A stretch of DNA of 64,000 nucleotides from an uncultured Actinomycetes bacterium (lineage in GTDB: Bacteria > Actinomycetota > Acidimicrobiia > Acidimicrobiales > JACCXE01), in assembly GCA_963722185.1 (NCBI GenBank), contig CAVRKD010000004.1, positions 12,480-76,479 on the forward strand, written 5' to 3'. Positions 2,732 through 11,466 of the stretch are shown in pieces. Each line of letters starts with the position of its first letter. Position 1 is the first letter of the stretch. A program made the translations under genes and the position numbers. The notes beneath the pieces are model-generated. The model saw only the letters and a program-made list of their open reading frames with translations, did no database searches and was not told the DNA's origin.

Positions 2732-3498
2732 TCGCGCTGCTCGTCGGTCTGTCGCGCCGCAACCTCATCGAGCTACGTCGGTACGGGTTCGACACCTTCT
2801 TCCAGTTCGCCGGCATCTTCATGCTGTTCACGCTGCTGTTCTGGGGCGCCAAAGGAGTCGGCGGCGCCGACATTCGCAACGGCGACACCCTGCCGGCGAT
2901 CGTCGTCGGGTTCGTCGTGCTCTCGATCGTGCTCGGCAGCTTCTTCACGACATCGCAGTGGCTTACGCAGGAGGCGACCCTCGGCACGCTCGAGCAGATC
3001 GCCATCTCGCCCTTCGGACTGCTCAGGGTTCTGATCGCCGAGTCGATCGCTTCGCTGTGGTTCTTGGCGCTGATCACGAGCGCGATGCTCGTCGGAGCGG
3101 AGGCTGTCAGCGGCCAATGGCTGCACATCGACATCGTCACCCTTGCGCCCCTGATCGCGCTGTTGCTGGTGCAAATGGTCGGGCTGAGCCTCGTCGTCGG
3201 TGGCGCCTCCGTGGTCTTCAAGCGGGTGGCGTCGCTGGCGAACCTGATGCAGTTTGTGTTCCTGGCTCTGGTCTCCTTGCCGATCGAGCAATACCCGGCG
3301 GTGCGCTACATGCCAATCGGGCTCGCCAACCATCTGATCCGAGAGTCGACCGTCAACAAGGTCGGGTTGTCCGACATGTCGGGCGGCGACTTGCTGCAAC
3401 TCGTGCTGCTCGCCAGCGCGTACTTCGCTGTCGGCGTCGTCGTCTTTCTGCGCTGTGAGCGAGTCGCCCGGGAACGTGGCCTCATCGGCGTCCACTAG
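2728..3498 (+). CDS. ABC-2 type transporter permease
   Basis: The product is a multi-TM hydrophobic protein. Its GTG start overlaps the ATPase stop (GTGA). The architecture is that of an ABC-2 permease. Confidence 0.75.
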   Translation: MIALLVGLSRRNLIELRRYGFDTFFQFAGIFMLFTLLFWGAKGVGGADIRNGDTLPAIVVGFVVLSIVLGSFFTTSQWLTQEATLGTLEQIAISPFGLLRVLIAESIASLWFLALITSAMLVGAEAVSGQWLHIDIVTLAPLIALLLVQMVGLSLVVGGASVVFKRVASLANLMQFVFLALVSLPIEQYPAVRYMPIGLANHLIRESTVNKVGLSDMSGGDLLQLVLLASAYFAVGVVVFLRCERVARERGLIGVH

Positions 3499-3617
3499 AG
3501 CCGCTGTCGCTGGGCGGCGCCGGCGGCCTCGTCGTGCGCCGTCGCTTCGTACCAGTTCGACCGCGCCCGTGTCCGCCTGGGCCACGCGCCGCCGACGCGC
3601 TGACGAACCGTCTTCGC

Positions 3618-4295
3618 TCAGCTCGCGGCGAGTGCCGCCTCGCTGGCTGCTGAACGCTCCGCCTGCTCGATGAGTTCCGCGGCGATGCCGCGGCGCGGTT
3701 GGATGACCGCGTCGATCAGGCCGTACTGCACGGCCTCGTGAGCGGTGAGGTAGTAGTCGCGGTCGATGTCGCGCTCGACTTGCTCGAGTGACTGACCGGA
3801 GTGGTGGGCGATGATTTGCGCCATCCGCTTGGTCGTGGAGAGAACCTCTCGCAAGTGAATCTCCATGTCGCGCGGGGCGCCGTTCGCACCGGCGGACCCT
3901 TGGTGAATCATGATCTTGGCGCTCGGCAACGCGAACCGCTTCCCCGGCGCGCCGCCGCACAGGATCATCGCCGCGGCCGACATCCCCATCCCGACGCAGA
4001 TGGTGGAGACCTCGGCTTGGGTGTGCTGCATCACGTCGTAGATCGCCATGCCGCCATAGGCGAGACCGCCGGGGGAGTTGATGTAGAGCGAGATGTCCTT
4101 CTCCGGATCCTGGGCGTCGAGGTAGAGGATCTCGGCGACGAGCAGGTTGGCGATCTGGTCGTCCACCTCCTGGCCGAGGAAGACGATGCGCTCCTTGAGT
4201 AGGAGCGAGTAGATGTCGAAGGCGCGGTCGCCCCGGCTCGACTGGTCGATGACGGTGGGAATCACGGACTGGCGCAGGCTGGTCATGCCTTTCAC
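3618..4295 (-). CDS. clpP: ATP-dependent Clp protease proteolytic subunit ClpP (catalytic triad present)
   Basis: Motifs IVFLGQEVDD and LYINSPGG are present. The Ser lies in GMGMSAAAM, the His in IMIHQG and the Asp in DIDRDYYLTA. There is an Ala-rich C-terminal extension. An alternative ATG start lies at 4286. Confidence 0.9.
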   Translation of the reverse strand: MKGMTSLRQSVIPTVIDQSSRGDRAFDIYSLLLKERIVFLGQEVDDQIANLLVAEILYLDAQDPEKDISLYINSPGGLAYGGMAIYDVMQHTQAEVSTICVGMGMSAAAMILCGGAPGKRFALPSAKIMIHQGSAGANGAPRDMEIHLREVLSTTKRMAQIIAHHSGQSLEQVERDIDRDYYLTAHEAVQYGLIDAVIQPRRGIAAELIEQAERSAASEAALAAS

Positions 4296-4313
4296 TATCT
4301 CATATTCGAGATA
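4296..4313. promoter_or_regulatory. AT-rich perfect inverted repeat in the divergent clpP/XRE control region (candidate operator)
   Basis: I read TATCTC-ATATTC-GAGATA directly from the sequence. It is a local AT-rich island between two divergent start codons. Confidence 0.4.
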
Positions 4314-4315
4314 TC

Positions 4316-4582
4316 ATGTTTGACGTGAGCCCGCGCCGGCACGACCCCGTGTTTCCCGGCTTCAAAGAGATGGCCGAAGGCCGCCGCGCCCTCGCTGCCG
4401 CCCTCACGGCGCGCCGCGTCGAGCTTGGGCTATCGCAAACCGAGATCGGCGCCCGCATGCGCACCTCGCAATCGGCGGTGGCGCGCCTCGAGTCCGGCGA
4501 CGCCGACGTGCGCCTTTCGACCCTCGAGCGCTACGCCGCGGCGTTGGGGCAACGGCTCGAATGGCGGCTCGACGATGACTGA
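4316..4582 (+). CDS. XRE-family helix-turn-helix transcriptional regulator (ClgR/PopR-like genomic context)
   Basis: The HTH_3 signature is LGLSQTEIGARMRTSQSAVARLESG. An alternative start at ATG 4370 would give 70 aa. The stop overlaps the next gene's start by 8 nt. Confidence 0.8.
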   Translation: MFDVSPRRHDPVFPGFKEMAEGRRALAAALTARRVELGLSQTEIGARMRTSQSAVARLESGDADVRLSTLERYAAALGQRLEWRLDDD

Positions 4583-5117
4583 CCTGTCTCGTTCGAGCGA
4601 CGACTGGTTGCAGGAGCGACTGCTTGATCGGCGTCTCGTTTTCCTGCGCGGCGTCCTGGACGACGAGCTCGCCGGGCGCGTCGCCCTCGAGCTGATGGCC
4701 CTCGACGCCACGGGTGATGATCCGATCAACTTGTACGTCGACAGTCCGAGCGGAACCTTCGAAGGCGCGTTCACCGTGATCGACACGATCGACTTAGTGG
4801 GCATCGACGTTGTGACCACGGCAATGGGCCGCGTCGAAGGGCCGGCAGTAGGAGTAGTCGCCGCGGGCCACCATCGCCGGGCGACTCCGAACGCGCGGTT
4901 CCGCCTCAGTCAGCCCGACCACACGATGACGGGCCGCGCCACCGAACTGGAGACCTGGGCGCGTCATCGCAACGAGCAGCTAGCGAACTTCGTCGCGCGC
5001 CTCGCCCTGGCCACCCGTCAGCCGCCGGAGCACATCGAGCACGCGTTAGACCGAGGCCTGTATCTCGACGCCGCCGCAGCGTTGCACTACCGCCTAGTTG
5101 ACGAGATCCTGCAGTAG
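4575..5117 (+). CDS. ClpP-fold paralog lacking the Ser-His-Asp triad (ClpR-like pseudoprotease)
   Basis: The product is collinear with ClpP (RLVFLRGVLDD, INLYVDSPSG, RFRLSQPD, LYLDAAAALHYRLVDEI). In my hand alignment the Ser column is E/G (GRVEGPAVG), the His column is S (RLSQP) and the Asp column is G (LDRGLYL). Confidence 0.75.
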   Translation: MTDLSRSSDDWLQERLLDRRLVFLRGVLDDELAGRVALELMALDATGDDPINLYVDSPSGTFEGAFTVIDTIDLVGIDVVTTAMGRVEGPAVGVVAAGHHRRATPNARFRLSQPDHTMTGRATELETWARHRNEQLANFVARLALATRQPPEHIEHALDRGLYLDAAAALHYRLVDEILQ

Positions 5118-5154
5118 GTGACTCGCGTGCGCGGAGTGGTTTGGCTCGACGTTC

Positions 5155-5584
5155 GTGTATCCGTTCCTCGGCGCGCAGTCGGCCAAGCGCAAGGGCATCG
5201 AGGGCGCAGCCATTTCCGACGCCGTTATCGCGACCGCCAAGATCGTCACCACACCGTTCGTCTATGGCGCGCTCGTCTTCGGATTGCTGATGGTCGCTCT
5301 GGGCGACAGCTACGACTGGGCTGACACCTTCGTGCAGGTCTCGATCACGTTGCTCATCGTGGCGATCGCGTTCTGCGGCGTTCGTGCACGTCCCCAACCT
5401 CGAGGCGATGAACAAGCTCGCCGCCGAGCTAGCCGGCATGGGCCCGCCGCCCGCGGGCGCGAGCGGACCACCGGCCCAAGCCGTCGAGCTCGAAACGCGC
5501 GGCAAGGCGGCTGCCCGCAACGGCGGCGTTCTGCACGTCCTGTTCGCGGTCGTCCTCGTCCTGATGATCTGGAAGCCGCGCTGA
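5155..5584 (+). pseudogene. Integral membrane protein, reading frame interrupted by a +1 shift near 5378-5381
   Basis: The frame-1 part (TM-rich, VYGALVFGLLMVAL, ITLLIVAIAFCG) continues sensibly in frame 2 (FVHVPNLEAMNKLAAEL ... VLHVLFAVVLVLMIWKPR). Deleting one G at about 5380 joins the two parts. The N-terminus is also uncertain. Confidence 0.4.
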
Positions 5585-5601
5585 AAGCGCGTCCCGGCTA
5601 G

Positions 5602-7407
5602 CTAACAGCTCAAGCACTTGGTGGTGTGCTTGTGCCCGTCCTGCTCGTGGTCGGGGTCGCCGCCCATCTTCGGGTCGTCGGAGACCGAGACGGCTTCGGG
5701 ATCGTTGAAGGCTTCGGTTTCGGCTGTCGACCACCCGCCCTGGACGTAGCGCTTGCCGACGTTCATCTTCATGATCATGCCGGGGCCGGAGATGCCACGT
5801 TCGTCCGGGCCGCTGACCTTCCCGTCGTAGTACACCTCCATGAAGTCCTTGATCGCCGTGGGGTAGGCACGGGTGAAGAACGAGGTAGGCGTCGCCGGTG
5901 TGCCACCGCTCTTGGGATAGGCGAACATGCCGGCCGCGTAGCTCTGCGGCGTCAACTTGGCCCCGGCCATCTGGATGCCGGTGAAGACGAGGCGGGGGAC
6001 CGAAGCGTAGATGTTGATTAGCACGCCTTCGTCGCCGTCCGCCATGTTCGGGTTTCCGTGGTGCGTCTCGCGCCACCCGTACGACTTTTGCACGGTGGCC
6101 CACGTCACCCATAGCGGTGAGATGCCGAAGGCGTGCTGCCACTGCGTCTGGTCGTAGAGGCGCCCGGCGGCGGTCGTGTCGGAGAGACCCGATCCCGTGA
6201 TGATCCACTCGGGGAAGTAGCTCTGGTTGGTGGCGGCCTGGGTGATAAGGATCGGTGACAGCGGGTCCACGAACATGACCAATGAGGTCACGGCATCGCC
6301 GTGGAACTTGATCATCATGTTGGTGAAGTCCTGCTGGTTGCGTCCCGGGTCGTACGTGTAGGCGAAGATGTCGCCGTCGCCGAACTTGGCGCCGTGTTTC
6401 GCCATCTCAGCTACAAGCGAGTCCTTGGCGCGCTTGCCCTCGGGGTCAGCCTTGCCCTTCACGCCTTCGAGATAGATGAGGCCGAACTTGCGCTTCGCCG
6501 TCTGCTGCGGCAGCCAGCCTTGACCGACGAATTTCGCTTGGCGGTTCCACAGCTTCTTGCCGATGTACTCGCCCAACATCTGGCTGTACTCCGTCGAGGT
6601 CGGCAGCGACCCGAAGATGTACGGGTTTTGCGACTGGTAGAAGTCGCTCGACAAGGTCACCGTGCAGATGCAGATGATGTTGCGGGCGGCCATCTCGACG
6701 GCGAAGACCTTCGGTCCACCCCACACGAGGAAAGGCTTGAGCTTCGTGGCGATGTCGATGGCGTCGGCCTTCGCCTGCTCTTCGTTCTCGGGTTCGCCCG
6801 TTGCGCCGTAGTCCTGAAACACGACGTGGCGCCCGTAGGTTTCGTAGTGCTGGTTGAAGTAGGTGAACAGCGCCTTGTAGGCGTTGGTCACCACTTGGGG
6901 GTCGTCGCCGAGCTTCGCGCTTTCGAGGATCGCCTCCGTCGCCGGGTCGACCTTGGGGATGTAGCGCACGATCAGGATCTGGTCCTTGGTCACGCCCGGC
7001 GATGTCGTGCCGCCGTTGTTGCTGCCCTTCACCCAGTTCGCACATGGCGGGGCGACGCGCTCGATCGAGATTTGTCGACCGTCGGCGCGGCAGTTCGGAC
7101 CGGTGCCGAAGGCCGCATTCGCGGCTGCGCCGCCGGTCGTTGGGCCACCGGTCGTCCCGCCGGATGACGTGTTCCCGCTGCCCCCGCTCGCGACGGTGCC
7201 GTCGGGCAACGTCGAGTCGGTGACCACCTGGTCGGTGTTGCCCGCCACGTTCGAGCCGCCCACGGCGAGGTTGCCGTTGCCGGTGCCGGTGTCGACGCTC
7301 GAGTCAGACGACTTGTTCTTCGCCGGCGTCAAGATCACGAGCAACGCCAACGCGACGACGATGACGACTGCCGCGCCGTAGCGGTCGACAGCCTGCCGAA
7401 GTGTCAT
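5602..7407 (-). CDS. Membrane-anchored ABC substrate-binding protein, distant Liv/type I periplasmic-binding fold
   Basis: The start is the ATG at 7407, preceded by GGGGGGA. There is an N-terminal TM anchor (AAVVIVVALALLVILTP) and a Gly/Thr/Ser-rich linker. The large binding domain lies divergent from Liv-type permease/ATPase genes. The track ORF extends to 7554. Confidence 0.72.
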   Translation of the reverse strand: MTLRQAVDRYGAAVVIVVALALLVILTPAKNKSSDSSVDTGTGNGNLAVGGSNVAGNTDQVVTDSTLPDGTVASGGSGNTSSGGTTGGPTTGGAAANAAFGTGPNCRADGRQISIERVAPPCANWVKGSNNGGTTSPGVTKDQILIVRYIPKVDPATEAILESAKLGDDPQVVTNAYKALFTYFNQHYETYGRHVVFQDYGATGEPENEEQAKADAIDIATKLKPFLVWGGPKVFAVEMAARNIICICTVTLSSDFYQSQNPYIFGSLPTSTEYSQMLGEYIGKKLWNRQAKFVGQGWLPQQTAKRKFGLIYLEGVKGKADPEGKRAKDSLVAEMAKHGAKFGDGDIFAYTYDPGRNQQDFTNMMIKFHGDAVTSLVMFVDPLSPILITQAATNQSYFPEWIITGSGLSDTTAAGRLYDQTQWQHAFGISPLWVTWATVQKSYGWRETHHGNPNMADGDEGVLINIYASVPRLVFTGIQMAGAKLTPQSYAAGMFAYPKSGGTPATPTSFFTRAYPTAIKDFMEVYYDGKVSGPDERGISGPGMIMKMNVGKRYVQGGWSTAETEAFNDPEAVSVSDDPKMGGDPDHEQDGHKHTTKCLSC

Positions 7408-7557
7408 TTGTTCAGGTCCCCCCTGTTGTGTCCCAGCCGACAATTCCGCGTGTGCGCGGCTTATGCTGCGGCGCACTGTACGCCGCGGCGTGCACAAGTG
7501 CTCGTCAGGTACGCGCCTGTGGGGACGAACACGGCAAAACAGAGGGGGGAACAACAG

Positions 7558-10500
7558 GTGGCCGCAGAAGTCAGCGGTGGCGGGGGCGACGCACGGTTCG
7601 AACGCGCGCGTGAGTGGGTCATGGACACGTGGCGTCAGTACCAGTGGGCGGTGGCGTTCTGGGTTGTCGCGTTTGTCGCGTTTTACCGGTTCTTCCCTGT
7701 TCCGGTCGCGATCTTGTTCCTCGGCGTGGTGCTCGGGTCGCTCTCGGCACTAACGGCGATGGGCCTGGTGCTCATCTACCGCGCCAATCGGATCATCAAC
7801 TTCGCGCAGAGCCAGGTCGGCGGCGTGGGCGCGGTCATGGCGGCGTCGCTCATCGTCGGCCCGGACTGGGGTTTCTTCCCGGCGGTCGCGGTCGGCTTCA
7901 CGCTCGCTATCGCGCTGGGCGCATTGACCGAGATTCTCTTCGTCCGTCGCTTCGCCAAGGCGCCTCGCCTGCTCTTGACAGTGGCGACGATCGGCATCAT
8001 GCAGCTGTTCGCGTTCGGGCAGTTGGGTATCCCGCGGCTGTTCGACTTCGACGTCGTTCCGCAACCACCGGTTCCGTTCGACTTCACGTTCAAGTGGCAC
8101 CCGGCGGTCTTCAAAGGTGCGCACCTTCTCATCATCGTCGTCGTGCCGTTGGTGGCCGCGGCCCTCGGCGCGTTCTTCCGTCTCTCGCGTGTCGGCATCG
8201 CCGTGCGCGCCTCGGCGGAGTCCGCCGACCGCGCCGCCCTCCTCGGTATCCCCGTCAAGCGGATCGGCACGCTCGTCTGGACCATCGCCGCTGCGCTCTC
8301 GGCGCTGGCCGTCTTGCTGCGCATGCCGATTCAGGGCGTGAACATCGGCGGCATCGAAGGCACGTCGCTGCTCTTGCGGGCGTTGGCCGCCGCCGTCATC
8401 GGGCGCATGGAGAGCCTGCCCAAGGCCTTCGGTGCCGCGCTCATGCTCGGCATGGTGGAGCAGAGCGTCCTGTACGAGACCGGCCGCACGGTGAAAGTCG
8501 ACGGCATGCTGCTGGCGATCATCATCGCCGCGTTGCTGTTGCAGCGGCGCGGCATCGTGTCACGGGCCGACGACTCGGGTGCGTCATCGTGGTCCGCCAC
8601 GCGCGAGGTCCGCCCAATCCCGCGCGAGCTCGCGTTCCTGCCCGAGGTGAAGGTCGGCCAAGTGCTGTTGGGCATCGCCTGCTTCTTTGGACTCGTCGTG
8701 CTCCCGTGGAACATGTCCGTGCACAGCCAGAACCTCATGGGCGTCGGCTTGATCATCGCCATGGTGACGCTGTCGCTGGTCATCCTCACCGGCTGGGCTG
8801 GGCAGATCAGTCTCGGCATGGTGGCGTTCATGGCCTTTGGTGCCGCCACTGGTGGCTCGCTCGCGTTGCAGGGGTGGACCTTCTTCTTGTGCCTTGCCGC
8901 CGCCGGCGTAATGGGCGCGATCATCGCCGTGCTCGTCGGCCTCCCCGCGCTGCGCATCAAAGGCCTCTTCCTCGCGGTCACAACGCTCGCCTTCGCACTG
9001 TCGACCGGCACGTTCCTGCTGAACAATGAATTCTTCGCCTGGCTGGTGCCCGACCCGAACTCGCGCATCGTGCGGCCGGTGCTCTTCAACCGCTTCGACC
9101 TCGACGACGAGCGCACGTACTACTTCGTCGTGCTCGCGTTCTTCCTCTTCACGCTGGCGTCGGTGCGCTCGCTGCGCCGCAGCCGAACGGGCCGCGTCCT
9201 CGTCGCGATCCGCGATAACGAACGGGCCGCGCAGTCCTACGCCATCAGCCCCATCCGAGCGAAGCTGTCGGCCTTTGCGCTGTCGGGTTTCTTCGCCGCC
9301 CTCGCCGGTGGGCTCTACGTGTTTCACCAACGCGGCATGTCGTCGACCGTCCTCGACCCCGACAGCAGCGTGCGCGTCTTCTCGATGGCGGTCATCGGCG
9401 GTCTCGGTTCGATCCCCGGCGCATTGCTGGGTGCCGCGTACCTCACCTTCGTCGACTACTCGAGCTTCACGCGGGCAACCCTCAGCCGCCTGCTCGCGAG
9501 TGGCGTTGGCGTGCTCTTCATCCTGATGTTCATCCCGGCCGGCCTCGGCTCGGTGCTCTACAACCTGCGCGACACAGCGCTGCGCTTCATCGCTCGTCGC
9601 CGCGACATCGTCGTGCCGAGTCTGCTCGCCGACGTGCGCGTCGAAGAGGAGGCGAACCTGCTCGACGAAGAAGCGGACGCTGAGAACCTCGCCCCGACGC
9701 GCGAGGTCACGCATCTGTCGAGGCCAAAGGACCCACTGCTGCTCGTGCGCGGCGTCGACGCCGGTTACGGCAGGACCCAGGTGCTCTTCGGCGTCGACAT
9801 GCATGTCGAGCGCGGCGAGATGGTCGCGTTGCTCGGTACCAACGGCGCCGGCAAGTCGACGTTGCTGTCGGTCATCTCCGGCCTGCTCGAACCCAGCTCT
9901 GGCTCATTGCTGTTCGAAAACGAGGACATCGGAGGCAGGACGCCGCAACAGATCCTCGCGGCCGGGGTTGTGTTCATGCCCGGCGGCAAGGGCGTGTTCC
10001 CGACGCTAACGGTCGAGGAGAACTTCCGGCTCGCGGCGTGGCAGTTCAACAAGGATCAGGAACACGTCGACCGGATGTACGCACAGTGCTTCGAGTATTT
10101 CCCGGTCCTCCGCGAGCGGTGGGACCAGAAGGCGGGCAACCTGTCCGGTGGCGAGCAGCAGATGCTCACGCTGAGCCAGGCGTTGATCGCCAAGCCAAAG
10201 CTGCTCATGATCGACGAGCTGAGCCTGGGTCTGGCGCCGCTCATCGTCGAGCAGTTGCTCGGCATCGTGCGCGCCATTCACGCCAACGGCACGACCGTCG
10301 TGTTGGTCGAACAGTCGGTCAACGTGGCGATCACCCTCGCTGACCGGGCGATTTTCATGGAGAAGGGCGAGGTTCGTTTCGACGGTCCTACGCGCGACCT
10401 GCTCGAACGCCCCGACATCCTTCGAGCGGTGTTCCTTCAGGGTGCCGACGCCGGTCGCGCTTCGGCTGGCGCGAGCACCGAGGCCGGGTCCGGCGTTGTC

Positions 10501-11466
10501 CCGGCTAAGCCGCGCAAGGCGTTTCTCGGCGTGTGCAAGTCATGCGGCCGCGAACACCACGAGGTGCTGGCGGTTGCCGAGATCGGCATGTCCTTCGGCG
10601 GCGTCCGCGCCGTCGACGAGGTATCGCTGAGCGTCCGCGAGGCCGAGGTAGTCGGAATCATCGGCCCGAACGGATCGGGCAAGACGACGCTGTTCGACCT
10701 GATGTCGGGCTTCGTGACGCCCAGTGAAGGCAAGGTCGTGTTGCTGGGCGAAGACGTCACCCACTGGACGCCCGACATGCGCGCCGAGGCCGGGCTCGGC
10801 CGTTCGTTCCAGGACGCGCGCCTCTTCCCGTCCATGACCGTTCGCCAGACGATCGCCACCGCGCTCGAACGCCACCTCGAAATCCGCGATCCGTTCGCGG
10901 CTGCGGTGATCTCGCCGGCTGTGCGCATCGCTGAGCGCCTCGTGGCGGCGGAGGTCGACGACCTGATCGACCTGATGCACCTTGGTGCGTTCGCCGACAA
11001 GTTCGTCGGTGAACTGTCGACCGGCACGCGCCGAGTGGTCGACCTTGCGTGCTCGCTCGCGCATAGCCCGGTGGTCCTGCTACTCGACGAGCCGAGTTCC
11101 GGTATCGCGCAGCGCGAGGCCGAGGCACTCGCGCCGCTGCTGCTCAACATCCGCGATCAGACGAACACGGCACTCATCGTCATCGAACATGACATGCCGC
11201 TGATCCGGTCGGTCTCAGACCGCCTGGTGGCACTCGAGCTCGGCCAGGTCGTCGCCGAAGGCGATCCCGACTCGGTCATCCACGACCCGCGCGTCGTGGA
11301 GGGCTATCTCGGAGGAACGATCGAAGTTATCGAGCGCTCCGGTGGTGGTGGCGGCGCGCCGCGGAAAAAGACTGCAGCTACCAAGAAGGTCGCGGCGAAG
11401 AAGAAGTCGACCAACGGCAACGGCGCGGCACGCAAGGCGGCGCCGCGCCGCAAGGCCGGCGTCTAA
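7558..11466 (+). CDS. Four-domain fused Liv-type ABC importer (LivH-like permease, LivM-like permease, LivF-like ATPase, LivG-like ATPase) with a Lys/Ala-rich tail
   Basis: The GTG at 7558 is preceded by AGAGGGGGGA; an alternative ATG lies at 7621. There are two blocks of multiple TM helices. NBD1 has GTNGAGKST, LSGGEQQMLTL and LLMIDELSLGLAP. NBD2 has GPNGSGKTT, the degenerate signature LSTGTRRVVDL and VLLLDEPSSGIA. The tail is APRKKTAATKKVAAKKKSTNGNGAARKAAPRRKAGV. Confidence 0.85.
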   Translation: MAAEVSGGGGDARFERAREWVMDTWRQYQWAVAFWVVAFVAFYRFFPVPVAILFLGVVLGSLSALTAMGLVLIYRANRIINFAQSQVGGVGAVMAASLIVGPDWGFFPAVAVGFTLAIALGALTEILFVRRFAKAPRLLLTVATIGIMQLFAFGQLGIPRLFDFDVVPQPPVPFDFTFKWHPAVFKGAHLLIIVVVPLVAAALGAFFRLSRVGIAVRASAESADRAALLGIPVKRIGTLVWTIAAALSALAVLLRMPIQGVNIGGIEGTSLLLRALAAAVIGRMESLPKAFGAALMLGMVEQSVLYETGRTVKVDGMLLAIIIAALLLQRRGIVSRADDSGASSWSATREVRPIPRELAFLPEVKVGQVLLGIACFFGLVVLPWNMSVHSQNLMGVGLIIAMVTLSLVILTGWAGQISLGMVAFMAFGAATGGSLALQGWTFFLCLAAAGVMGAIIAVLVGLPALRIKGLFLAVTTLAFALSTGTFLLNNEFFAWLVPDPNSRIVRPVLFNRFDLDDERTYYFVVLAFFLFTLASVRSLRRSRTGRVLVAIRDNERAAQSYAISPIRAKLSAFALSGFFAALAGGLYVFHQRGMSSTVLDPDSSVRVFSMAVIGGLGSIPGALLGAAYLTFVDYSSFTRATLSRLLASGVGVLFILMFIPAGLGSVLYNLRDTALRFIARRRDIVVPSLLADVRVEEEANLLDEEADAENLAPTREVTHLSRPKDPLLLVRGVDAGYGRTQVLFGVDMHVERGEMVALLGTNGAGKSTLLSVISGLLEPSSGSLLFENEDIGGRTPQQILAAGVVFMPGGKGVFPTLTVEENFRLAAWQFNKDQEHVDRMYAQCFEYFPVLRERWDQKAGNLSGGEQQMLTLSQALIAKPKLLMIDELSLGLAPLIVEQLLGIVRAIHANGTTVVLVEQSVNVAITLADRAIFMEKGEVRFDGPTRDLLERPDILRAVFLQGADAGRASAGASTEAGSGVVPAKPRKAFLGVCKSCGREHHEVLAVAEIGMSFGGVRAVDEVSLSVREAEVVGIIGPNGSGKTTLFDLMSGFVTPSEGKVVLLGEDVTHWTPDMRAEAGLGRSFQDARLFPSMTVRQTIATALERHLEIRDPFAAAVISPAVRIAERLVAAEVDDLIDLMHLGAFADKFVGELSTGTRRVVDLACSLAHSPVVLLLDEPSSGIAQREAEALAPLLLNIRDQTNTALIVIEHDMPLIRSVSDRLVALELGQVVAEGDPDSVIHDPRVVEGYLGGTIEVIERSGGGGGAPRKKTAATKKVAAKKKSTNGNGAARKAAPRRKAGV

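Follow-up and report, generated by a model that had tools for sequence, protein, structure and literature searches.

The window analysed here is a stretch of 64,000 nucleotides from an uncultured Actinomycetes bacterium of the class Acidimicrobiia (assembly GCA_963722185.1, contig CAVRKD010000004.1, positions 12,480 to 76,479 of the forward strand), and all coordinates refer to it. Near its start it contains three genes, identified from the list of open reading frames (ORFs) and by direct reading: a minus-strand clpP, a plus-strand gene for a helix-turn-helix (HTH) protein of the XRE family, and a plus-strand gene for a 180-residue ClpP-like protein. A previous inspection of the same DNA, made from the letters alone and called here the sequence-only reading, had described the last of these as a ClpP paralog that lacks the catalytic triad, sharing an operon with the XRE regulator and transcribed away from a catalytic clpP. 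The present analysis bears this out. The paralog, which is designated pseudo-ClpP, is a genuine triad-less member of the ClpP family in exactly this arrangement. The features of the locus are listed below.

3618..4286, minus strand: clpP, catalytic, 222 residues from ATG 4286 (the mechanical ORF is 3618..4295, from GTG 4295)
4287..4324: control region of 38 bp, shared by the divergent start codons
4299 to 4294, minus strand: GATAGT, the mirror image of TATCAT, 7 nt upstream of clpP ATG 4286
4296..4313: perfect inverted repeat TATCTC-ATATTC-GAGATA, putative XRE operator
4312..4317, plus strand: TATCAT, a -10-like hexamer (TAnnnT), 7 nt upstream of GTG 4325
4325..4582, plus strand: XRE-family HTH regulator, 85 residues from GTG 4325, or 88 residues from ATG 4316
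4575..4582, plus strand: overlap of the XRE stop and the pseudo-ClpP start, ATGACTGA, 8 nt
4575..5117, plus strand: pseudo-ClpP, the triad-less ClpP paralog, 180 residues

The start codons were set by homology. The clpP orthologs at related loci open with M-(x)-S-V-I-P-T-V, and for this reason the true start of clpP is most likely ATG 4286. The XRE orthologs open with M-S-E-R-R-H, to which V-S-P-R-R-H at GTG 4325 aligns, and one relative (L028) has CTG in place of the window's ATG 4316, so that the xre start is probably GTG 4325. With these two starts the intergenic gap becomes 38 bp (4287-4324). The sequence-only reading had left the spacing between clpP and xre at 20 to 80 bp, depending on the start codons used; the probable value lies within that range. 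The 8-nt overlap between xre and pseudo-clpP, which had also been pointed out before, is real, and it is kept in close relatives, as ATGACTGA in L027 and GTGACTGA in L028. At every related locus, according to the gene calls, the two genes lie close together, with anything between an overlap of 20 nt and a gap of 5 nt. The overlap is consistent with translational coupling of xre and pseudo-clpP.

The product of 4575..5117 matches the Pfam family CLP_protease with a score of 103 bits (E 1.9e-29). When E. coli ClpP, with its triad of S97, H122 and D171, is included in a profile alignment, the window protein has Gly, Ser and Gly at the three catalytic columns. Pairwise phmmer alignments to solved ClpPs agree with the hand alignment in the sequence-only reading for two of the columns, where His is replaced by Ser (in RLSQP) and Asp by Gly (in LDRGLY). 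At the third, the hand alignment gave Glu or Gly; the Ser is indeed replaced, by Gly, which is the last G of GRVEG, and Glu drops out. Sequence identity to all solved ClpPs is roughly equal, at 29-35%. The AlphaFold2 model of pseudo-ClpP is confident (predicted local distance difference test, pLDDT, 91.8), and the best Foldseek matches of this model are ClpP structures, with a template modelling (TM) score of about 0.9 and a root mean square deviation of 1.3 Å.

Pseudo-ClpP belongs to a large family. A search for the exact sequence of the window protein returned no record, and a word-based search gave 51 relatives. When 1.84 billion representatives were searched exhaustively with a profile, 420 (at 50% identity) had E≤1e-30, of which the best 150 all score at least 162 bits, and a second profile search gave at least 757 clusters (at 90% identity) with E≤1e-20. 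Of the 317 members aligned, 309 have Gly in place of the Ser and 262 have Gly in place of the Asp. The residue at the position of the His varies, R, S, F, A, T and C each being common. We conclude from these columns that the loss of the triad is family-wide and old. Wherever a source names a member of the family, the name given is 'ATP-dependent Clp protease proteolytic subunit'. As an annotation of active proteases, this is judged from the sequences to be wrong.

Three longer sequences were found during the searches and were not used as evidence. Two are single metagenomic predictions that may be artefacts of assembly or gene calling, and are at most weak hints that dead and catalytic subunits assemble together: P0096 (470 residues) has an inactive ClpP-like domain followed by one that carries Ser, His and Asp, and P0153 (363 residues) has a domain with Ser changed to Ala followed by a dead domain of the family type. 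The third, P0200 (375 residues), was considered as a fusion of xre and pseudo-clpP, and was rejected as a frameshift artefact produced by read-through.

The window gene has an intact reading frame, and the GC content at its third codon positions (GC3) is 80%. The ratio of nonsynonymous to synonymous substitution rates (dN/dS) was computed for the window against the close relative L027, for which dS is about 0.6-0.8. It is 0.133 for pseudo-clpP, 0.035 for clpP, 0.009 for xre, and about 0.08 for the flanking ABC genes. Pseudo-clpP is therefore the fastest-evolving of the three genes, 3-4 times faster than clpP. Across species, its product is 42-57% identical, as compared with 75-85% for ClpP and 60-83% for the XRE protein. 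As judged from these comparisons, purifying selection acts on pseudo-ClpP, and the protein is functional.

The neighbouring clpP is a conventional gene. Its product scores 244 bits against Pfam CLP_protease and 278 bits against NCBIfam PRK00277, which is over the cutoff, and profile alignment finds the complete triad where it had previously been read, with Ser in GMGMSAAAM, His in IMIHQG and Asp in DIDRDYYL. Its best solved relatives are ClpPs of the E. coli type (237 bits), to which it aligns from end to end, including the N-terminal loop. By these sequence comparisons it is an E. coli-type ClpP, and not an actinomycete ClpP1 or ClpP2. Its orthologs at the related loci are 75-85% identical to it. 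They share some features: GMGMSA and IHQG occur in 22/22 distinct ClpPs from such loci (within L001-L040), where E. coli ClpP has GQAAS and HQP, and most of those with a recovered C-terminus end in an extension PRRG(I/V)(S/A)AEL, which in the window is PRRGI(A/S)AEL. These features may be an adaptation to the module, or they may be a plain signature of the lineage. No second clpP was found within the 64-kb window (the question whether the clpP is a lone one was checked over this window and over flanks of about 5 kb at the related loci), and Pfam scans found no Clp ATPase among the large ORFs of the window.

The arrangement of the three genes is conserved. Neighbourhoods were compared at 20 loci from species-representative genomes, all of them metagenome-assembled genomes (MAGs), labelled Acidimicrobiia, Acidimicrobiales, Acidimicrobiaceae, Actinomycetes or Actinomycetota, with two labelled Methylomirabilota. 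The full cassette, which consists of clpP on the minus strand and of the XRE gene followed by pseudo-clpP on the plus strand, is present at 16 of the 20. Two of the other four have XRE and pseudo-ClpP only, and two have pseudo-ClpP alone. The cassette is also found at loci reached from other members of the family (L001-L006, L027, L029 and L030) and at loci reached from XRE homologs (L034-L040). Since the flanking genes vary between loci, it is the three genes that form the unit. Even in the closest relative the gene downstream is different: L027 has a gene for an NfeD-domain protein (5479-5940), and at the same place in the window is an ORF (5155-5601) that is unrelated to it and for which Pfam gives no match. 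This confirms the 3' boundary of the module.

The distribution is, on this evidence, vertical and not of the patchy kind seen with mobile elements, because the cassette is kept from loci labelled Acidimicrobiaceae up to those labelled only by phylum, lies in housekeeping contexts, and has clpP genes that are 75-85% identical. No members of the family were found in IMG/VR viral contigs, and none among PLSDB plasmids, where the only matches were generic ClpPs of <36% identity. No PADLOC model matches either Clp protein. A few members carry labels of another phylum. Those labelled Methylomirabilota or Rokuibacteriota (L012, L022 and P0254, together with L032/L033) have XRE and pseudo-ClpP, or pseudo-ClpP alone, and no clpP; P0254, which belongs to a P0053-like group, is named Candidatus Rokuibacteriota. 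These could reflect transfer between phyla or mis-binning. In addition, a tail-less subfamily typified by P0283, to which the P0053-like group is related, has XRE and pseudo-ClpP and no clpP. In three long-read MAG loci a match falls in two pieces that lie in two frames or overlap, which may be due to indel errors or pseudogenes: that to pseudo-ClpP in L025 (5001-5505) and L026 (5001-5508), and that to clpP in L021 (3880-4478).

The control region between the divergent genes contains the perfect inverted repeat TATCTC-N6-GAGATA at 4296-4313, to which attention had been drawn in the sequence-only reading as an AT-rich repeat of the shared control region in otherwise GC-rich DNA. This description holds. 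The 38-bp gap has a GC content of 36.8%, and the 38-mers that start at 4283-4291 are the minimum for the whole window, at 34% as against 66.7% overall. The repeat is the single perfect match in 64 kb. Allowing up to 2 mismatches, there are 3 matches in the window where 0.26 are expected, and 3 or more were seen in 0/100 shuffles. The site is also conserved: the pattern TATCTC-N8-GATA (with up to 1 mismatch) occurs in exactly one copy at each locus with a divergent clpP, upstream of xre, with no further copies in clpP-bearing loci of about 10 kb or less. Its distance to the aligned xre start is mostly 20-74 bp, and is 124 and 172 bp in two loci. The consensus over the loci is G-TATCTC-(AT-rich N6)-GAGATA-C. 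The pattern was not found at loci without an adjacent clpP, one of which (L007) has a diverged GATCTT-N6-GAGATC in its place. The palindrome is thus an operator-like site conserved across the cassette loci, and we take it to be the phylogenetic footprint of a putative operator for a dimeric HTH protein. The right arm of the repeat continues into TATCAT. If this hexamer serves as a -10 element, the xre mRNA would be leaderless, and one bound XRE dimer could block two divergent, possibly leaderless, promoters. A scan of 3400-5400 found no terminators.

The XRE protein (as the product of ORF 4316..4582) matches Pfam HTH_3 with 43.6 bits and HTH_31 with 35.5 bits. No NCBIfam family reaches its cutoff, and the top match, far under cutoff, is to a HipB/Y4mF-type antitoxin family. 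Ahead of the HTH domain lies an invariant N-terminal arm of sequence RRH(D/E)PVFPGF(K/R)EMA, present in 119 of the 120 best XRE homologs (77-92% identical); in the window it is encoded at 4325-4366 (residues 1-14). In the AlphaFold2 model of the protein, which has a mean pLDDT of 86.8, residues 1-12 are non-helical, with an average of 57 for the first ten, and they are followed by a long helix and the HTH. The arm may contact DNA or a partner.

Many relatives of pseudo-ClpP extend beyond the ClpP domain. The end of the domain could be located in 286 family sequences, and 149 of these have at least 10 residues beyond it. The motif [LIVFMP]G[FY] is found in 98 of these 149 tails, compared with an average of 7.9 and a maximum of 15 for shuffled tails. 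The consensus of the tail is P-[RG]-R-P-[F/I/L]-G-F-[R/G]-P, and the motif lies at a median distance of 4 residues from the C-terminus. Examples are L007 (4977-5561, ending RRPFGFGPA) and L011 (4977-5558, ending RRRLGFGPP), and also P0010, P0024 and P0055. Clp ATPases dock in the hydrophobic pockets of ClpP by means of a tripeptide (L/I/V)-G-(F/L), which is mimicked by the acyldepsipeptide (ADEP) antibiotics (PMC8745299). The GF tail of the family suggests a mode of contact with ClpP that formed no part of the sequence-only reading.

Pseudo-ClpP itself is poorly equipped to receive such a tripeptide. The hydrophobic pocket of E. coli ClpP is formed by Y60, Y62, I90, M92, F112, L114 and L189. 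In the profile alignment these seven positions are mostly polar across the pseudo-ClpP family. The axial N-terminal loop is not conserved either, the region being variable or absent in the family, and there is none in the window protein. Because both the loop and the pocket are degenerate, it is unlikely that pseudo-ClpP acts as a docking ring for Clp ATPases of the mycobacterial ClpP2 kind. The neighbouring ClpP retains the N-terminal loop and, among the seven pocket positions checked, Y62, I90, F112 and L114.

We propose that the XRE protein controls both promoters through one operator, and that the dead paralog is a non-catalytic partner or modulator of ClpP. This is the reading that we prefer, and we would give it an even chance of being right. 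The cassette would then be a self-contained, vertically inherited Clp control module of the Acidimicrobiia. An XRE dimer would bind the single palindromic operator, which lies between, and overlaps with, two putative back-to-back core promoters, and would govern clpP together with the operon of xre and pseudo-clpP from which it is itself made. It would most likely act by repression or autorepression, because the operator abuts or overlaps the -10 and start regions. Pseudo-ClpP would be made in a fixed ratio to XRE by translational coupling, and would act on the ClpP machine by protein contact and not by proteolysis, since with the triad, the axial loop and the hydrophobic pocket all degenerate it is predicted neither to cleave substrates nor to dock Clp ATPases. 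It might join ClpP and contribute an inert ring or inert subunits, or it might cap and modulate ClpP. A ClpP/ClpR hetero-ring, a decoy or a substrate trap, as suggested in the sequence-only reading, would be possible functions only. In the tailed members, which do not include the window sub-clade, the sequence P-R-R-P-(F/I/L)-G-F-R-P would enter the pockets of the catalytic ClpP, just as ClpX and ClpC insert their (L/I/V)-G-(F/L) loops, and its insertion would tune ATPase docking or the opening of the gate.

Several observations weigh against this proposal. The window pseudo-ClpP and its closest relatives, P0002 and P0003, stop directly after the domain and have no GF tail, so the tail mechanism is not applicable to the window locus as such; the absence of the tail looks like a derived loss. 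An Asp-Arg pair beside the catalytic Asp helps to join the two rings of ClpP, and it is not conserved in the pseudo-ClpP family, which weakens a simple model of stacked rings. Some members of the family have no adjacent clpP (L007, L012 and L032/L033) or no XRE gene (L011 and L022). The invariant arm of the XRE protein could be a plain DNA-contacting arm and not a partner-binding peptide. Finally, a scan of 3400-5400 with a strict consensus found no sigma-70 promoter, and the promoter geometry described above was read by hand.

A bolder form of the proposal takes in the whole family, and we offer it only tentatively, as unlikely but with a genuine chance of being right. The family would be an unrecognised class of ClpP regulators, consisting of dead ClpP-fold rings whose (I/L/F)GF tails plug the ATPase pockets of ClpP as an endogenous cap, either blocking the ATPases or opening the gate as ADEP does. 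Made in a fixed ratio with an XRE repressor that shares the clpP operator, they would set up a homeostatic loop, by which the activity of ClpP is kept in step with demand. The window sub-clade, having no tail, would on this view be derived, and would act through ring contacts or through the FPGF arm of the XRE protein.

The alternatives differ in what pseudo-ClpP is taken to touch. It may never touch ClpP, and instead form a transcriptional sensor pair with the XRE protein, as a co-repressor or anti-repressor that senses signals for it, much like a toxin-like partner or a ligand-binding domain, for example by binding unfolded peptides in the dead substrate groove, or by binding the FPGF arm, so that the occupancy of the operator by XRE, and with it the expression of clpP, follows the proteotoxic load. 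This explanation is a serious one, which we nevertheless consider unlikely. It accounts for the coupling and strict adjacency of xre and pseudo-clpP, which persist even without an adjacent clpP (L007 and L032/L033), and it is favoured by the extreme constraint on xre (dN/dS 0.009) and by the invariant flexible arm RRHxPVFPGF ahead of the HTH, given that in type II antitoxins, HigA2 among them, such N-terminal arms can serve to bind the partner. The arm is, however, rich in Arg and His and may merely contact DNA. A sensor pair also leaves unexplained why the ClpP fold in particular should be retained, why most tails mimic a tripeptide of the ClpP pocket, and why a catalytic clpP should be the divergent neighbour in 16 of the 20 species representatives. 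A different suggestion is a selfish module of the toxin-antitoxin or defence type, with XRE as antitoxin and pseudo-ClpP as a toxin that poisons or deregulates ClpP, either like ADEP or as a dominant negative. The architecture does resemble that of type II toxin-antitoxin operons, in which a small HTH gene comes first and overlaps its partner downstream; the best NCBIfam match of XRE, weak as it is, is to an antitoxin; and ClpP might in principle be deregulated by a tail lodged in its hydrophobic pocket. Against this stand the searches of PADLOC, IMG/VR and PLSDB described above, the housekeeping chromosomal contexts and the vertical, clpP-linked pattern, and we regard such a module as very improbable.

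The remaining alternative is that there is nothing unusual here, and that pseudo-ClpP is an ordinary ClpP2 of the lineage misread by hand alignment, or a decaying duplicate. This is worth considering, because actinomycetes commonly have two clpP genes and because the paralog evolves 3-4 times faster than clpP, and identity with ClpP2 had been named in the sequence-only reading as one way in which its proposal could fail. The other was a profile alignment with Ser, His and Asp at the catalytic columns, and the alignment made here shows none of the three there. We find it scarcely credible in either form. An active ClpP2 is excluded by Gly/Ser/Gly at the triad, seen in both profile and pairwise alignments, and by the fact that these substitutions are common to hundreds of diverged sequences throughout a large family. 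A decaying duplicate or pseudogene is excluded by the same shared substitutions, and by the intact frame, the dN/dS of 0.13 and the GC3 of 80%. The locus is also the wrong shape, since the genes are divergent with XRE between them and do not form a tandem clpP1P2 operon, and the neighbouring ClpP resembles that of E. coli.

The reading of pseudo-ClpP as a non-catalytic partner of ClpP has precedents. ClpR, in cyanobacteria, plastids and the apicoplast, is a structural, non-proteolytic subunit of the ClpP core. By analogy of function it is the closest known thing to pseudo-ClpP, and the regulatory logic recalls that of ClgR and PopR, but on the features compared the locus fits neither. Like ClpR, pseudo-ClpP has the ClpP fold without the Ser-His-Asp triad and is kept by selection beside a catalytic ClpP gene. 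It differs in taxon, being found in uncultured Acidimicrobiia (some of the contigs carry a Methylomirabilota or Rokuibacteriota label), and in position, since it lies behind an XRE gene and is divergent from clpP, and is not in an operon with a catalytic clpP. Furthermore its axial loop and hydrophobic pocket are degenerate, and many members have a C-terminal (I/L/F)GF tail. A non-catalytic role is described for the plastid ClpR subunits (PMC6508832).

The ClpP1P2 system of Mycobacterium and Streptomyces is comparable in that it has two ClpP-family proteins, which here occur together at one actinobacterial locus. By analogy with that hetero-tetradecamer, an asymmetric two-ring particle with one ATPase-binding face is a possibility here also (PMC4416901, PMC6889138). 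The differences are considerable. ClpP1P2 has two catalytic subunits, encoded by tandem genes, with ClpP2 as the ATPase-docking ring; in the module described here the second protein is dead and has neither docking pocket nor loop, its active partner is like the single-copy ClpP of E. coli, and the genes are divergent.

ClgR and PopR are, like the XRE protein, small XRE-type HTH regulators tied to clpP, with a palindrome upstream of clpP; for the window protein, action on clpP is suggested by the footprint. ClgR is an activator, with a core motif CGC-N5-GCG about 100 bp upstream of clpP1 (PMC3613350). The site here is TATCTC-N6-GAGATA (G-TATCTC-N6/8-GATA-C across the loci) and overlaps the start regions of two divergent genes, and XRE proteins of the window type are coupled to pseudo-ClpP and have the distinctive RRHxPVFPGF arm. 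The tail consensus of the family shares the (L/I/V)-G-(F/L) tripeptide with the IGF/LGF loops of ClpX, ClpA and ClpC and with their ADEP mimics, except that it lies at the extreme C-terminus of a ClpP-fold protein and not in a loop of an AAA+ protein, and it is absent from the window protein. The likeness to type II toxin-antitoxin modules extends to the two-gene layout of an HTH gene with an overlapping partner, and not to a mobile distribution or a match to a known family. Searches of the full-text literature turned up neither an account of an actinobacterial ClpP lacking the triad nor one of a pair formed by an XRE protein and a ClpP-like protein.

ClpP, a protease of central importance, is also a drug target, and catalytically inactive subunits of it have until now been a hallmark of cyanobacteria and plastids. 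The present results describe a large bacterial family, so far unnamed, of dead ClpP paralogs that are tied to their own regulator and to a catalytic clpP, in a class that is abundant in soil and freshwater, and they point to an unstudied way of controlling this protease. If the (I/L/F)GF tail does dock in ClpP, then it would be the first natural protein known to us, other than the Clp ATPases, to use the pocket shared by ATPases and ADEP, and the module would offer a compact and testable model of how a compartmental protease is kept under feedback control.

Elsewhere the window is unremarkable chromosomal DNA. Pfam matches include a class I aminoacyl-tRNA synthetase, LeuA, CcmF and ABC transporters, and scans of the window with Rfam and for tRNAs found nothing except one tRNA-Ala. 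This tRNA-Ala (CGC) is at 253-327, and the mechanically listed start of an ORF for a SET-domain protein (331-963; Pfam SET, 37.5 bits) follows within 4 bp. Downstream of the cassette, an ORF of 1352 residues (7408-11466, plus strand) appears to be a fusion of permease segments of the branched-chain ABC type with two ATPase domains, whose Walker A motifs read GTNGAGKST and GPNGSGKTT in the translation. It is adjoined on the opposite strand by an ORF of 650 residues (5602-7554) with no Pfam match.

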